Translations under genes and position numbers: made by a program | Shown here: piece by piece, positions 14,770 to 23,340 of the stretch | Layout: each line of letters begins with the position of its first letter | Numbering within the stretch: position 1 is the first letter of the stretch | NCBI RefSeq assembly: GCF_000346485.2 | Contig: NZ_KQ976354.1 | Location: forward strand, 5,780,824 to 5,812,823 | Direction: 5' to 3' | Source of the DNA: Scytonema hofmannii PCC 7110 | GTDB lineage: Bacteria; Cyanobacteriota; Cyanobacteriia; Cyanobacteriales; Nostocaceae | DNA: 32,000 nucleotides | The notes under the pieces: generated by a model | What the model saw: the letters and a program-made list of their open reading frames with translations, nothing else | The model's database searches: none | What the model was told of the DNA's origin: nothing

Positions 14770-15027
14770 TCAGGCTGACGTTTCCCCCACTAGTCGAGCA
14801 TTCTCAATACCTACCTTTCTTTCCACTATCTCCAATCGCTTAATCACTTCTCCCAAATCCCATTTTTTGACCTCCTCTGTCTCAGCTTTCAAGTAATCGT
14901 CAATGAATTGCTTAAGAACTGCTGTTACTGTTTTTCCTTCTCGTTCCAGTTTCTCACTGAACGCTGTTTTCGTTTCAGGGTCAATCTCAATCGATATAAA
15001 AGTTCTTTGCCTCTTAGTCTTTGTCAT
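14770..15027 (-). CDS. Ribbon-helix-helix (CopG/Arc/MetJ-like) DNA-binding protein
   Basis: N-terminal basic tail plus beta-strand RTFISIEIDPETKTAF, followed by the helices EKLEREGKTVTAVLKQFIDDYLK. Typical RHH layout. Confidence 0.6.
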   Translation of the reverse strand: MTKTKRQRTFISIEIDPETKTAFSEKLEREGKTVTAVLKQFIDDYLKAETEEVKKWDLGEVIKRLEIVERKVGIENARLVGETSA

Positions 15028-16978: not shown

Positions 16979-17008
16979 CCCCCAAAACCATTGGGGGTTA
17001 TTTTTCTA
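16979..17008 (+). terminator. Intrinsic terminator of the 15236-16946 operon
   Basis: CCCCCAA (16979-16985), loop AACCA, TTGGGGG (16991-16997), then TTATTTTT. Confidence 0.55.
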
Positions 17009-17100
17009 CGTCCTCTTAAAGAAAAGACCGTGGTGCGATCGCGACAATTCTTCGTCCCAAACCAAGACGGGGAATCTCCTTGCAATGTCAAAACCCATCC

Positions 17101-17274
17101 TCAATCTTCCAAATACTTTTCACCAGTCTCAGACTCTTTTTTTTTCAACCAGTCTCTAATTGCCTCCTCTAAAGCCGCTGTTTGGGTGACTTCCAAACGA
17201 GCACAAGCCACTTCAAAGACAATTTTTAAATTTTTGGGTATTCTGCCGCGAACTTCTCTTGTCTCTTCTGCCAT
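17101..17274 (-). CDS. 57-aa ribbon-helix-helix (Arc/CopG-like) protein divergent from cas12k; below the ORF-track size cutoff
   Basis: My translation of the minus strand from ATG (17274-17272) to TGA (17103-17101): MAEETREVRGRIPKNLKIVFEVACARLEVTQTAALEEAIRDWLKKKESETGEKYLED. It shows a beta-strand then helix-helix pattern. It sits where V-K CASTs usually carry a cas12k regulator. Confidence 0.6.
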   Translation of the reverse strand: MAEETREVRGRIPKNLKIVFEVACARLEVTQTAALEEAIRDWLKKKESETGEKYLED

Positions 17275-17333
17275 TTAAACACGAAACCTTATTTCGGGCT
17301 TAATTGTTGCACAGTATATGAACAAAAATTAAG

Positions 17334-17378
17334 TTGCGCTAAAAAGCTCTTGCGCTATTGCGCGTTTGCGCTCATAAT
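17334..17378 (+). promoter_or_regulatory. Putative cas12k promoter overlapped by four TTGCGC repeats (candidate operator)
   Basis: TTGCGC at 17334, 17350, 17358 and 17366. TTGCGC(17350) plus a 17-nt spacer plus CATAAT (17373-17378) gives a sigma70-like -35/-10 pair ~115 nt upstream of the cas12k ATG. Confidence 0.4.
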
Positions 17379-17490
17379 AAAAGCGATAGTTAAAATCATC
17401 TGTTTGTAGAGTCTGCTTCGTCACTACAAAAAATTTTCCTACTCAGACATTTAAATTTCGTGCCCGTTCAATTGGTGCTAAATAACCCTT

Positions 17491-19428
17491 ATGAGCACAA
17501 TCACGATTCAATGCCGCCTAGTTGCAGAAGAAGCGACCCTGCGCTACTTTTGGGAACTTATGGCTGAGAAGAATACGCCACTCATTAATGAATTGTTGGA
17601 GCAGTTAGGACAACATCCAGATTTTGATACTTGGGTACAAGCAGGCAAGATGCCTGAAAAGACAGTTGAGAACTTGTGCAAGTCCCTAGAAGATCGAGAA
17701 CCTTTTGCAAATCAGCCCGGTCGTTTTCGTACTTCGGCAGTTGCTCTGGTAAAGTACATTTACAAATCCTGGTTTGCGTTACAAAAACGACGGGCGGACA
17801 GACTAGAAGGTAAAGAGCGCTGGTTAAAGATGCTCAAAAGTGATGTGGAACTGGAACGAGAAAGCAATTGTAGTTTGGATATTATTCGAGCTAAAGCTGG
17901 GGAAATTCTTGCTAAAGTTACTGAGGGGTGCGCTCCGAGCAATCAAACATCCTCTAAGAGAAAAAAGAAGAAGACTAAAAAAAGCCAAGCGACAAAAGAT
18001 CTCCCTACGCTTTTCGAGATTATATTAAAAGCTTACGAACAAGCTGAAGAAAGCCTGACACGAGCTGCCCTTGCTTATCTCCTTAAAAATGACTGTGAAG
18101 TCAGTGAAGTTGATGAAGATTCAGAGAAATTTAAAAAGCGACGGCGAAAAAAGGAAATAGAAATTGAACGTTTAAGAAATCAACTGAAAAGTCGGATACC
18201 TAAAGGTCGCGATTTAACCGGAGATAAGTGGTTGAAAACGCTAGAAGAAGCCACCCGAAATGTTCCTGAAAATGAGGATGAGGCAAAAGCTTGGCAAGCC
18301 CAACTCTTAAGAGAAGCTAGTTCTGTTCCTTTTCCTGTAGCTTATGAAACTAGTGAAGATATGACTTGGTTTACCAACGAGCAAGGTCGAATCTTTGTTT
18401 ACTTTAATGGTTCAGCCAAACATAAATTTCAAGTTTATTGCGATCGCCGTCAACTTCATTGGTTTCAACGTTTTGTAGAAGACTTTCAAATCAAGAAAAA
18501 TGGTGATAAAAAAGGTAGCGAAAAGGAGTACCCTGCTGGGTTATTGACGCTTTGTTCCACTCGTCTGAGATGGAAAGAAAGCGCGGAAAAAGGAGATCCT
18601 TGGAATGTTCATCGCCTAATTCTTTCTTGCACTATCGATACACGCTTATGGACACTTGAAGGAACGGAACAGGTGCGAGCTGAAAAGATCGCTCAGGTTG
18701 AAAAAACTATTAGCAAGCGGGAGCAAGAAGTTAATCTGAGTAAGACTCAACTTGAGCGTTTACAAGCCAAGCACAGTGAGAGGGAGAGATTGAACAATAT
18801 TTTTCCCAACCGCCCTAGCAAGCCCAGTTACCGGGGTAAATCTCATATTGCGATCGGTGTAAGCTTCAGTTTGGAAAACCCAGCCACTGTTGCCGTCGTA
18901 GATGTTGCAACCAAGAAAGTCCTTACTTACCGCAGTTTCAAACAATTACTCGGAGATAACTACAACCTTGCAAACCGGCTGCGGCAACAAAAGCAACGTC
19001 TTTCTCACGAACGTCACAAAGCTCAGAAACAAGGCGCACCAAATTCATTTGGAGACTCAGAGTTAGGGCAGTATGTAGACAGATTGCTAGCAAAATCGAT
19101 TGTCGCGATCGCAAAAACTTATCAAGCTAGTAGTATTGTCTTGCCTAAACTTCGCTATATGAGGGAAATCATACATAATGAAGTTCAAGCTAAAGCCGAA
19201 AAAAAGATTCCAGGATATAAAGAAGGTCAAAAACAATATGCCAAACAGTATCGGATAAGCGTTCATCAATGGAGTTATAATAGATTATCACAGATTCTTG
19301 AAAGCCAAGCTACAAAAGCTGGAATTTCAATTGAACGTGGATCGCAAGTAATCCAAGGTAGCTCCCAAGAACAAGCACGAGATTTAGCTTTATTTGCCTA
19401 TAACGAACGCCAACTTAGTCTGGGTTAG
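17491..19428 (+). CDS. cas12k: Cas12k (type V-K effector, nuclease-dead)
   Basis: MSTITIQCRL...NTPLINELLEQLGQHPDFDTW...RQLHWFQRFVEDFQ...HIAIGVSFSLENPATVAVVDV...SHERHKAQK...YAKQYRISVHQWSYNRL parallels ShCas12k as I remember it, along its whole length. RuvC motif I reads GVSFS, with Ser where the catalytic Asp would be. Confidence 0.95.
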   Translation: MSTITIQCRLVAEEATLRYFWELMAEKNTPLINELLEQLGQHPDFDTWVQAGKMPEKTVENLCKSLEDREPFANQPGRFRTSAVALVKYIYKSWFALQKRRADRLEGKERWLKMLKSDVELERESNCSLDIIRAKAGEILAKVTEGCAPSNQTSSKRKKKKTKKSQATKDLPTLFEIILKAYEQAEESLTRAALAYLLKNDCEVSEVDEDSEKFKKRRRKKEIEIERLRNQLKSRIPKGRDLTGDKWLKTLEEATRNVPENEDEAKAWQAQLLREASSVPFPVAYETSEDMTWFTNEQGRIFVYFNGSAKHKFQVYCDRRQLHWFQRFVEDFQIKKNGDKKGSEKEYPAGLLTLCSTRLRWKESAEKGDPWNVHRLILSCTIDTRLWTLEGTEQVRAEKIAQVEKTISKREQEVNLSKTQLERLQAKHSERERLNNIFPNRPSKPSYRGKSHIAIGVSFSLENPATVAVVDVATKKVLTYRSFKQLLGDNYNLANRLRQQKQRLSHERHKAQKQGAPNSFGDSELGQYVDRLLAKSIVAIAKTYQASSIVLPKLRYMREIIHNEVQAKAEKKIPGYKEGQKQYAKQYRISVHQWSYNRLSQILESQATKAGISIERGSQVIQGSSQEQARDLALFAYNERQLSLG

Positions 19429-20099: not shown

Positions 20100-21307
20100 G
20101 TTTCAACAACCATCCCGGCTAGGGGTGGGTTGAAAGTTGTTCCTATGGATCTAGAGTCAAACACGACTTACGCGTTTCAACAACCATCCCGGCTAGGGGT
20201 GGGTTGAAAGGTAAAAATTGAGTCTCTTGAAAGCCATCAAGCGCGTTTCAACAACCATCCCGGCTAGGGGTGGGTTGAAAGAGTGCGGGTGTAAAGATCG
20301 TGACGTGCAGAGGCGAGCGAGTTTCAACAACCATCCCGGCTAGGGGTGGGTTGAAAGTTCCACGGTGAAAATTTTTCGCTTACAACCCGCACCAGTTTCA
20401 ACAACCATCCCGGCTAGGGGTGGGTTGAAAGCAAATGGCACCGAGTCAAGCGCATGGGGAGATTTGTGTTTCAACAACCATCCCGGCTAGGGGTGGGTTG
20501 AAAGGCTAATAACTGTGCTAGAGCAAAAAATAAGTAACATGTTTCAACAACCATCCCGGCTAGGGGTGGGTTGAAAGCGAAATGAGCTTGGTAGATTTTT
20601 TAGCAAAATGGGACGTTTCAACAACCATCCCGGCTAGGGGTGGGTTGAAAGAGGCAATTGCCCTCAGCTGCACAAATTGCCCAAGGGTTTCAACAACCAT
20701 CCCGGCTAGGGGTGGGTTGAAAGATTCATTTGGATCGCAATCCCCTCAACTTCAAAAAGTTTCAACAACCATCCCGGCTAGGGGTGGGTTGAAAGAAGTC
20801 GGTTTCTTCCGCCGCCTTGCGTGGGAGTTTCAACAACCATCCCGGCTAGGGGTGGGTTGAAAGCGGAGGATGCGAGTTATCGCCTGATGCGATCGCACGT
20901 TTCAACAACTATCCCGGCTAGGGGTGGGTTGAAAGCCGATCCTTTGGAGTGGGCAGAAGATCTGAGAGTGCGAGTTTTAACAAGTATCCCGGCTAGAGGT
21001 GGGTTGAAAGAATTAACTCCTCCTAATGCGTATCTTCTGGCGTTTTTGGTTTCAACAACCATTCCGGCTAGGGGTAAGTTGAAAGGAGTGCCACTGTTGG
21101 TGGAATCCTGGTTGCGGCTGGAGTTTTAACAAGTATCCCGGCTAGAGGTGGGTTGAAAGATTGATGATGTACCGGGGTAGACCAATCCCTCCGGAATGTT
21201 TCAACAACCATCCGTACTAAAGATGGATTGAAAGATTTGGTGCAAAATAGGGTCAAGTTATTTTTCAAAAATTTCAACAATTATCTGGCTATAGAATCAG
21301 TTCAGTA
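20100..21307 (+). CRISPR. Type V-K CRISPR array: 16 repeats of 37 nt (20100-21234) plus a degenerate 17th (21271-21307); spacers 31-39 nt
   Basis: Repeat GTTTCAACAACCATCCCGGCTAGGGGTGGGTTGAAAG starts at 20100, 20174, 20245, 20321, 20395, 20468, 20541, 20615, 20687, 20759 and 20827. Variant copies start at 20899, 20974, 21049, 21123 and 21198. Degeneration toward the 3' end places the leader on the tracrRNA side. Confidence 0.97.
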
Positions 21308-21968: not shown

Positions 21969-22188
21969 CGACATTAATTTGTTAACGTTAGTTGGAACTA
22001 ATTCGACGACATTAATTCGTTAACAGCGACATTAATTTGTTAATCGACACTAAATGGAGAAACAGGACGACATTAATTTGCGAAAAGTTCCTATAATTGA
22101 ATTGATGAGACAAACTATTCTAAACGACATTAATTTGCGAAAAACGACACAAATTTGCGAATTACGACATTTAATTTGCGAATGTACA
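21969..22188. mobile_element. CAST transposon end (RE in ShCAST nomenclature; distal to tnsB) with 8 direct TnsB-binding-type repeats and terminal TGTACA
   Basis: CGACATTAATTTG(T/C)(T/G)AA-type repeats start at 21969, 22007, 22027, 22045 (degenerate), 22068, 22125, 22145 and 22165. The last one runs into ...AATTTGCGAATGTACA (22183-22188), analogous to the ShCAST end ...AATTTGTCACTGTACA as I recall it. Confidence 0.8.
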
Positions 22189-22485
22189 TTTGCGGTTCAT
22201 TTAAGTAGGTAGTCTTTGGGCGGGAAAGGAGTAGAAAACACTATAAACTACTTAAAAGAACATAATTTAAACCGCAGCAACTGATATGCTAGGGAGATTA
22301 TAGCGCTCGCTTTCCAACCCCACAAAACGAGGGATATTAGTTTTGCCAATTGTGATTTTTTCTGAGTTCTAATTTGAAAGGACAGGTTTTGCAATATTTT
22401 TAAAATCAGATTGTGGTTGCTAGCGATAAGCCGGGTACGGCTTGCGCTTCGCGAACGCACTGATTATACCTCACACAATTTTCAA

Positions 22486-23340
22486 TCAGCCATCAGCATA
22501 TGCTTTTTCCAACAAAGCTAAGGGGTCAGTCCAACGGCGAATTATCTGGGCTGGGGAGACAGTACGCCTCTGTTCGATGATTGCCAAGGTTTCTAACTGA
22601 TTGAGACACTCCTGTAATGCTTCTGTTTCTATACCAAGAATAGGCGCTAATCCCATTTTCTGCTGTAGGAGATCGTCGGTTAAAACAGAGGTTGTATCGC
22701 CAAAATCCCGTTCCCACAATTTGGCTAGAAAGTATCCAATTAGATAAGGATTGGGTAAAGTAGCATTTCTAGTAGTATATGTATCTTCGTCTAATGTAAG
22801 AAATTGGCAATACTTTAGAGGAGATTCTTCCTTGGTATTTTTATTAGGTGACAACGCATATGCTTTCAAAACAATCGTAAAGTTTTCCATGAGTCTCTTT
22901 TCAGAGTCCTGCTCAAAAATAACAGCGCTACATTGTACTAACTCATTTAGTGTGAAAGTAGGGAGTTCGGGTAAAAAACTATAAACGAAGTAAGACCAAC
23001 CACCCCAATCAGAAGGGTTGTCGGGTGGTTTTGCTAGTCCTTTGTCACCAAAGCTGAGGTAGAAGTGCATCAACCAGTCCGTGATGGTTGATTTTAGATA
23101 AGGGTCTTTTTCAAGAACAATCTTTCCTTCCGGGCTAAGGTAGTTGTCACGAACTAATCCTGCCCTCATCGCCCAACTTTTCATCGGAGCAACTTTCTTA
23201 TTTCCTAAACTTGTTCTCTCCATTAAGTTTTCTATAGTATCTTTTAAACCTTGTTCCTCAGCAGCTGTGCAAAGGATTTTAAGCAGGTCTTCTTTCTTAA
23301 GAGCAAATGTAGTGTGAAAACTAAGTTGTAACCTAGGCAT
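22486..23340 (-). CDS. DUF4007-like protein (SspB-like component of Ssp phosphorothioation systems)
   Basis: Size, the N-terminal SFHTTFAL...LGNKKVAPMKSWAMRAGLV pattern (DUF4007-like, from memory) and linkage to the cysteine desulfurase and PAPS-reductase genes. Confidence 0.5.
   Translation of the reverse strand: MPRLQLSFHTTFALKKEDLLKILCTAAEEQGLKDTIENLMERTSLGNKKVAPMKSWAMRAGLVRDNYLSPEGKIVLEKDPYLKSTITDWLMHFYLSFGDKGLAKPPDNPSDWGGWSYFVYSFLPELPTFTLNELVQCSAVIFEQDSEKRLMENFTIVLKAYALSPNKNTKEESPLKYCQFLTLDEDTYTTRNATLPNPYLIGYFLAKLWERDFGDTTSVLTDDLLQQKMGLAPILGIETEALQECLNQLETLAIIEQRRTVSPAQIIRRWTDPLALLEKAYADG

Follow-up and report, generated by a model that had tools for sequence, protein, structure and literature searches.

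The 32,000-nt stretch of the Scytonema hofmannii PCC 7110 genome analyzed here (the window) contains the greater part of a type V-K CRISPR-associated transposon (CAST), and the locus under study is the control region of that transposon, in which cas12k and a small gene, arc_1, diverge across 216 bp, exactly as given in a preliminary description of this DNA (Table 1). Matches to PF06527 and PF09299 in the genome and ORFs at G000:C1 5778017-5781263 mark tniQ together with tnsB and tnsC, the latter two immediately upstream of the window. The left transposon end is also on that side, and there the repeat TTCGCAAATTA of the right end is found again upstream of tnsB. The genome has a single copy of cas12k and a single close copy of arc_1, and no Rfam family other than CRISPR repeats was matched in the window. 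V-K CASTs usually adjoin a tRNA gene; none was found anywhere in the window, and the right end is directly followed by a phosphorothioation (Ssp/Dnd-like) gene cluster (22183-22486). The transposon cargo also carries a second small ribbon-helix-helix (RHH)-like gene of 85 aa at 14770-15027 on the minus strand, 2 kb from arc_1, with weak matches to ParG and RHH_1 (E ~0.005-0.007).

Table 1. Positions of the genes and sequence elements in the window
Feature	Position	Strand	Remarks
tniQ, 3' part	3-440	+	Window begins inside tniQ
Weak terminator-like hairpin	17026-17040	-	61 nt past the arc_1 stop codon; consensus scan, pattern match only
arc_1, RHH regulator gene	17101-17274	-	57 aa; ORF 17274->17101, ATG start
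Candidate extended -10 box of arc_1 promoter	17303-17311	-	TGC-AACAAT on the minus strand; putative function
Operator unit 1 (putative)	17334-17341	+	TTGCGCTA; 60 nt from the arc_1 ATG, as in type-A relatives
Operator unit 2 (putative), degenerate	17342-17349	+	AAAAGCTC; in phase with the other units
Operator unit 3 (putative)	17350-17357	+	TTGCGCTA; first six bases are the putative cas12k -35 box
Operator unit 4 (putative)	17358-17365	+	TTGCGCGT
Operator unit 5 (putative)	17366-17373	+	TTGCGCTC; final base also begins the -10 box
Putative cas12k -10 box	17373-17378	+	CATAAT, read from sequence; TATAAT, CATAAT or a near variant in relatives
Predicted cas12k 5' leader	17379-17490	+	About 105 nt, from the -10 position
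cas12k	17491-19428	+	NCBIfam NF038191, 942.6 bits (cut-off 150)
CRISPR array of the CAST	20100-21085		13 matches to Rfam RF01329
TnsB-binding repeats, right transposon end	22074-22182	-	TTCGCAAATTA x4

Type V-K CASTs are under development as programmable DNA insertion tools, and the way in which they are restrained within their hosts is known for one regulator type only, CvkR. In their catalogue of these systems, Ziemann et al. (2023, Nat Commun 14:924; PMC9938897) distinguished three regulator types encoded upstream of cas12k, namely CvkR, Arc_1 and Arc_2. Arc_1, carried by 22 of the 118 catalogued systems (about a fifth), was described there as a protein of 53-72 aa encoded in reverse orientation upstream of cas12k and was listed on bioinformatic grounds only; its acquisition was inferred to have occurred once, in a single Cas12k clade (PMC9938897). 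With its 57 aa, reverse orientation and 216-bp divergent spacing, the arc_1 gene in the window fits that description. The preliminary description had called the gene unlisted, which is correct for its ORF list and for GenBank, but the exact protein has been published: it agrees in all 57 residues with CAST_87 of the Arc_1 alignment (Supplementary Data 2), and also with the regulator sequence in the table row for Scytonema hofmanni PCC 7110 (Supplementary Data 1; PMC9938897). In that row the regulator is given as 'no_NCBI_ID' and Cas12k as KYC40734.1, which the Cas12k sequence of the window matches. By identity of both the Cas12k and the regulator sequences, the CAST in the window is therefore the catalogue entry for this strain.

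The earlier statement that CvkR alone had been characterized, with Arc-type genes noted bioinformatically, agrees with the published record. CvkR is the sole regulator type studied experimentally in PMC9938897, and the motif work of that study concerns CvkR alone; no Arc_1 binding motif, operator or experiment is found there, the words 'operator' and 'tandem' do not occur, and the activity of Arc_1 as a repressor of CAST genes is presumed. Arc-type CAST regulators are still called predicted in a 2025 paper and in a 2026 preprint (bioRxiv 10.64898/2026.09.24.754181), and we found no report of an Arc_1 motif or of Arc_1 experiments in the literature searched. Thus the arc_1 gene is already known, and the array of 8-bp units presented below, its probable operator, is undescribed in that literature.

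The arc_1 gene and its product

The proposal that the 57-aa ORF encodes an RHH protein was borne out by profile search. The product matches Pfam PF21432 (56B_RHH) with an E-value of 6.7e-13 and 48.8 bits, above the Pfam cut-off of 27.2, over profile positions 1-32 of 32. With a profile of 36 homologues, the closest solved relative by sequence is PDB 2KEL (E 1.6e-7, residues 13-47 aligned), the 56B protein of SIRV1; this archaeal virus protein is the founder of PF21432 and is not known to be related to Arc_1 in operator or biological role. An AlphaFold2 monomer model of Arc_1 (mean pLDDT 83) has helices at residues 14-27 and 31-56 after an extended N-terminal segment, where no strand was called; the RHH strand forms only in the dimer. 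In a Foldseek comparison of the model with the PDB, the top matches were all RHH proteins (CopA_SO, ParD, Arc and CopG), and the top seven gave TM-scores of 0.56-0.76 (query-normalised) and 0.56-0.86 (target-normalised); for this very short chain none of them reached E <= 0.001. Judged by its sequence, the 57-aa gene encodes an Arc_1-type RHH protein.

Besides the cluster to which the protein itself belongs, we found 61 clusters of homologous proteins, nearly all from Nostocales cyanobacteria and all with PF21432, in which there is hardly any variation in the N-terminal strand, REVRGR(I/V/L)P, or in either helix. That the small ORF should be conserved and translated in relatives, as the proposal presupposed, is upheld by the distribution of nucleotide differences: among 79 relatives, codon positions 1, 2 and 3 differ 647, 303 and 1842 times, respectively, and because of this third-position excess we take the arc_1 frame to be translated and under purifying selection. 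The weak hairpin past the stop codon fits a single-gene arc_1 transcript without a co-transcribed partner gene. Upstream of the gene, the candidate extended -10 box is an instance of a TGn-NAnAAT motif that is present in 79 of 81 loci, in most of them 24-32 nt before the arc_1 ATG.

The 8-bp array upstream of cas12k

Four TTGCGC repeats had been placed over the cas12k promoter in the preliminary description, and all of their coordinates are exact: the hexamer occurs on the plus strand at 17334, 17350, 17358 and 17366, with spacings of 16, 8 and 8 bases. The description as four copies of TTGCGC is incomplete, however, as the four hexamers are only part of five in-phase 8-bp units of the form TTGCGnnA that extend from 17334 to 17373, the second of them degenerate. 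At the position of this second unit, relatives with the same architecture have TTTAGCTC, TTAAGCTA or AAAAGC. TTGCGC is found 10 times in the 32-kb window (both strands), and the 12.3-Mb genome has 5027 copies; nowhere else in the whole genome are there at least three same-strand copies within 20 nt of each other, and from the genome-wide hexamer frequency, we estimate that about 2e-4 such clusters would be expected by chance per genome. The units are direct repeats and are weakly palindromic, the palindromic part being the GCGC core. For an RHH dimer, whose beta-ribbon is symmetric, direct and weakly palindromic repeats are a less common kind of site, which counts against the binding proposed below.

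The elements of the promoter first described, TTGCGC at 17350-17355 and CATAAT at 17373-17378 with a 17-nt spacer, can be read directly from the sequence as reported, but the promoter is sub-threshold by sigma-70 criteria: in a consensus scan of 17000-17600 no promoter passed, with the -35 box matching at 3/6 positions and the -10 box at 5/6. We assign the putative cas12k promoter here because of the -10 box and its conservation in relatives, where it is mostly TATAAT. The predicted leader between this box and cas12k is 34-37% identical between the two architectures defined below, which amounts to no conservation. A structured leader or riboswitch 5' of cas12k was considered and rejected, as its fold is no better than that of shuffled sequences (z -0.70) and it has no Rfam match.

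To survey relatives, we scanned one genome per species and obtained 80 loci encoding an Arc_1 relative, with cas12k within 500 bp on the other strand in 54. Conservation of TTGCGC-type arrays upstream of cas12k, a point raised in the preliminary description, was seen in every Arc_1-bearing CAST examined. All 54 loci have in-phase TTGCG-type units in a single 8-bp phase, numbering 3-5 in 53 and two in one decayed locus, and in 53 of the 54 the array ends at a cas12k-facing -10 box, mostly TATAAT; one decayed locus has no -10 box after the array. The consensus over 216 units is TTGCG(C/T/G)(T/C)A, position 8 being A in 183 of them. Two architectures can be distinguished. In type A (23 loci, including the type present in the window), unit 1 is followed by a degenerate unit 2, units 3-5 and then the -10 box, whereas type B (31 loci) has four contiguous units, the last of which overlaps TATAAT by two bases.

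The 54 array sequences are all distinct from one another. Across the 40 nt that precede the -10 box, the fraction of identical bases is 0.58 at a lag of 8 and 0.61 at a lag of 16, compared with about 0.1-0.35 for the remaining lags and for the flanking sequence. When types A and B are compared, the last 24 nt of the array are 76% identical and the block that holds the candidate arc_1 promoter is 66% identical, and identity falls to 34-39%, or about random, in the leader, the region before the cas12k ATG and the region beside the arc_1 ATG. Unit number varies by whole units, as seen in an extra unit in one relative (L057), a 16-bp duplication in another (L070) and an array of three units in a third (L045). 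Given the diverged flanks and these whole-unit changes, it is the periodic units, together with the way they meet the -10 box, that are under selection, rather than the entire region.

The array is also associated with the regulator gene. In a 401-genome sample of the same order, 69 cas12k loci had enough upstream sequence; all eight of those bearing Arc_1 have at least four in-phase units, and none of the 61 without Arc_1 reaches three. However, because Arc_1 marks one Cas12k clade (PMC9938897), this contrast comes close to a single independent event; the association is phylogenetically confounded, and conservation within the clade therefore carries more weight. Outside Nostocales, in Leptolyngbya, Stenomitos, Phormidesmis and their kin, 13 loci have distant Arc_1 homologues (65-73% identity), which lie opposite a conserved pair of small genes, orf105-orf106, instead of cas12k. 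These 13 loci keep arrays with an 8-bp period (TTACGnCA, CTGCGCTC or TTGnGCGA) directly before a -10-like box. Since distant homologues that face other genes retain such arrays, we conclude that the array travels with the RHH gene.

Neither orf105 (105 aa) nor orf106 (106 aa) has a confident Pfam family, and orf106 has a weak HTH_23 match (L074-L086). They are sometimes followed by orf218 and orf224 (218 and 224 aa) with overlapping stop and start codons (e.g. L078:860-2894, minus strand), and in three of the 13 loci (L078, L080 and L082) cas12k lies ~2.4 kb beyond the operator. The genes orf105, orf106, orf218 and orf224 could be unrecognised CAST accessory genes. We also looked for co-variation between strand residues and unit sequence, and rejected it: REVRGR(I/V/L)P stays near invariant even where the units become TTACGnCA or TTGnGCG, so no specificity code is readable from these loci.

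Proposed role of the array and comparison with known regulators

The observation of an RHH gene divergent from cas12k with repeats over the intervening promoter is confirmed, and its interpretation as a control circuit for cas12k is supported by comparative evidence. The five-unit array is very probably the binding site of Arc_1, whose Arg-rich strand would suit the G/C core of the units. In the reading that we favor, to which we assign a probability of about 0.77, Arc_1 dimers bind the tandem units cooperatively and block the cas12k promoter, so that cas12k is repressed. The dimers would sit side by side on the five 8-bp units; as the array covers the -35 box and the spacer and reaches one base into the -10 box, an occupied array should exclude RNA polymerase and so keep cas12k, the transposon's arm for RNA-guided targeting, in the off state. 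We infer the DNA binding, cooperativity and repression from the arrangement of the units, and likewise the transcription start sites and the autoregulation considered next.

Unit 1 would lie just upstream of the -35 position of the conserved candidate arc_1 promoter, so some, presumably milder, autoregulation is plausible alongside repression of cas12k. One could go further and regard the array as an Arc_1 operator that serves mainly for autoregulation of arc_1, or for activation, with control of cas12k being incidental or positive. Many RHH proteins autoregulate, the first unit abuts the candidate arc_1 promoter, and the fact that the module faces other genes in distant relatives ties it to arc_1 rather than to cas12k. 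Nevertheless, we consider this account unlikely: the stretch from the -35 to the -10 box of the cas12k-facing promoter holds three to four units, the array always ends at the -10 box on the cas12k side, which is the geometry of occlusion and not of activation, and the array stops ~25 nt short of the candidate arc_1 -10 box.

Repression of cas12k by Arc_1 at this array can be compared with control by CvkR, the MerR-type repressor of the AnCAST of Anabaena sp. PCC 7120. Both regulators are encoded by a small gene divergent from cas12k, with a site over the cas12k promoter and a repressor role, both of which are presumed for Arc_1. CvkR, however, has a winged helix-turn-helix MerR fold instead of the RHH fold of Arc_1, and no MerR or HTH family is among the Pfam matches of the arc_1 protein at E <= 1. 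Its site is one 15-nt palindrome, AnnACATnATGTnnT, as against 4-5 tandem 8-bp units here; allowing one mismatch, this palindrome has two matches in the window (5943 and 21953), which is chance level, and none in 17275-17490. While cas12k is leaderless in AnCAST, the -10 box here lies 112 nt before the cas12k ATG. The motif of CvkR recurs at the tnsB promoter; in this genome, by contrast, we found no second array in the 530 bp upstream of tnsB, only isolated single units. Arc_1, unlike CvkR, would thus apparently have no second repressor site at tnsB, which suggests that the two regulators wire the transposon differently. As for the catalogued Arc_1 (PMC9938897), the protein (CAST_87) and its position are the same as here, and the 8-bp array is the addition made in this study.

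The closest experimentally tested precedent is the Arc protein of IS605-family elements, an RHH protein that binds and represses the tnpB promoter and whose divergent promoter layout suggests autoregulation (Moon et al., bioRxiv 10.64898/2026.09.24.754181). Like Arc_1 it is encoded by a transposon, and the controlled gene encodes an RNA-guided effector of the family ancestral to cas12k, although the transposon family is a different one and the DNA-contact residues of the IS605 Arc (Asn5, Asn7 and Thr9) contrast with the Arg-rich strand REVRGRIP of Arc_1. By this parallel, small RHH repressors may have repeatedly accompanied this lineage of RNA-guided proteins.

Array binding itself has well-known models among RHH proteins. 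MetJ on tandem 8-bp met boxes and the omega repressor on 7-bp heptads bind cooperatively along an array, and their operators consist of two to five contiguous short units over a promoter, with one RHH dimer thought to occupy each unit. The tandem 8-bp units over the cas12k promoter resemble these operators at the level of a possible mechanism only: the arc_1 protein has no match to the MetJ Pfam family at E <= 1 and is not a member, and the units are direct repeats that are palindromic only in the GCGC core. A more elaborate form of the favored reading, which we put forward tentatively as a possibility and rate well below repression itself, would have Arc_1 act as a MetJ-like polymerising switch whose strength is set by the number of units (2-5 in relatives, with insertions or duplications in some); it would gate cas12k only, leaving the transposase genes outside its control, and the arc_1-operator module would predate its link to cas12k.

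For repression of cas12k by Arc_1, the conserved candidate operator makes the circuit directly testable, as it comprises 40 bp with defined units and has natural variants in unit number. A 57-aa repressor and its operator would also be a very small candidate pair for controlling cas12k.

Related repeats elsewhere and variant loci

The TTGCG core with an 8-bp period is not exclusive to the arc_1/cas12k site, because a dispersed tandem 8-mer, TTGCG(C/T)CT, shares both. In at least three copies, this repeat is found at 6-40 intergenic sites per genome in five Nostocales relatives and at a few sites in the present genome, including G000:C1:8333150 (L002:1501-1522) and G000:C1:2031360 (L003). The triple-unit pattern matches at L002 and L003 belong to this dispersed repeat and were rejected as not CAST-related. 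It differs from the CAST array in its last two positions and has no fixed relation to arc_1 or cas12k. We did not find the sequence in the literature searched; it is possible that the dispersed copies are a source of off-target binding.

These copies raise the prospect that the repeats upstream of cas12k are just a local copy of the dispersed Nostocales repeat, or a site for a host factor, and are unrelated to Arc_1. The common core and period and the further sites in this genome would fit such an origin, but four lines of evidence make it very improbable. The signature of the CAST units is different, with A at position 8 in 183/216 units where the dispersed family ends in CT. When the genomes of the five relatives were searched throughout, four of them had three CAST-type units in a row at the arc_1/cas12k site and nowhere else, and in the fifth the type-A array is below the pattern threshold. 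The array stands at a fixed distance from both the arc_1 ATG and the -10 box in 54 loci whose flanks are near random, and arrays are absent from 61/61 cas12k loci without Arc_1. A toxin-antitoxin pair in the transposon cargo, with the RHH protein as its antitoxin, is scarcely credible: several of its nearest structural matches are DNA-binding domains of RHH antitoxins (CopA_SO, ParD and TacA), but the pair is disfavored because no co-directional ORF follows arc_1 and the weak terminator-like hairpin does, the conserved partner in relatives is the divergent cas12k and not a downstream toxin gene, and the 57-aa protein is without a conserved C-terminal toxin-binding extension.

Several loci of Arc_1 relatives depart from the two common architectures. 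In a Leptolyngbyaceae MAG (L016:2780-3000), the operator region is expanded to 221 bp and contains five tandem units of the variant CAATACGG, followed by further TTGCG units and then the -10 box, a natural expansion of the array accompanied by drift of the unit. Other loci are decayed (L018, L020, L039/L040, L043 and L069). In L018, arc_1 is directly bordered by transposon-end repeats and a tRNA-like sequence. The array of L020 breaks off behind unit 1 and continues into a tracrRNA- or CRISPR-repeat-like sequence, GGTGGGTTGAAAG. Unit 1 alone is left in L039 and L040, where a 42%-identical cas12k is located ~730 bp away. In L043 and L069, cas12k is internally deleted and the array is still kept.
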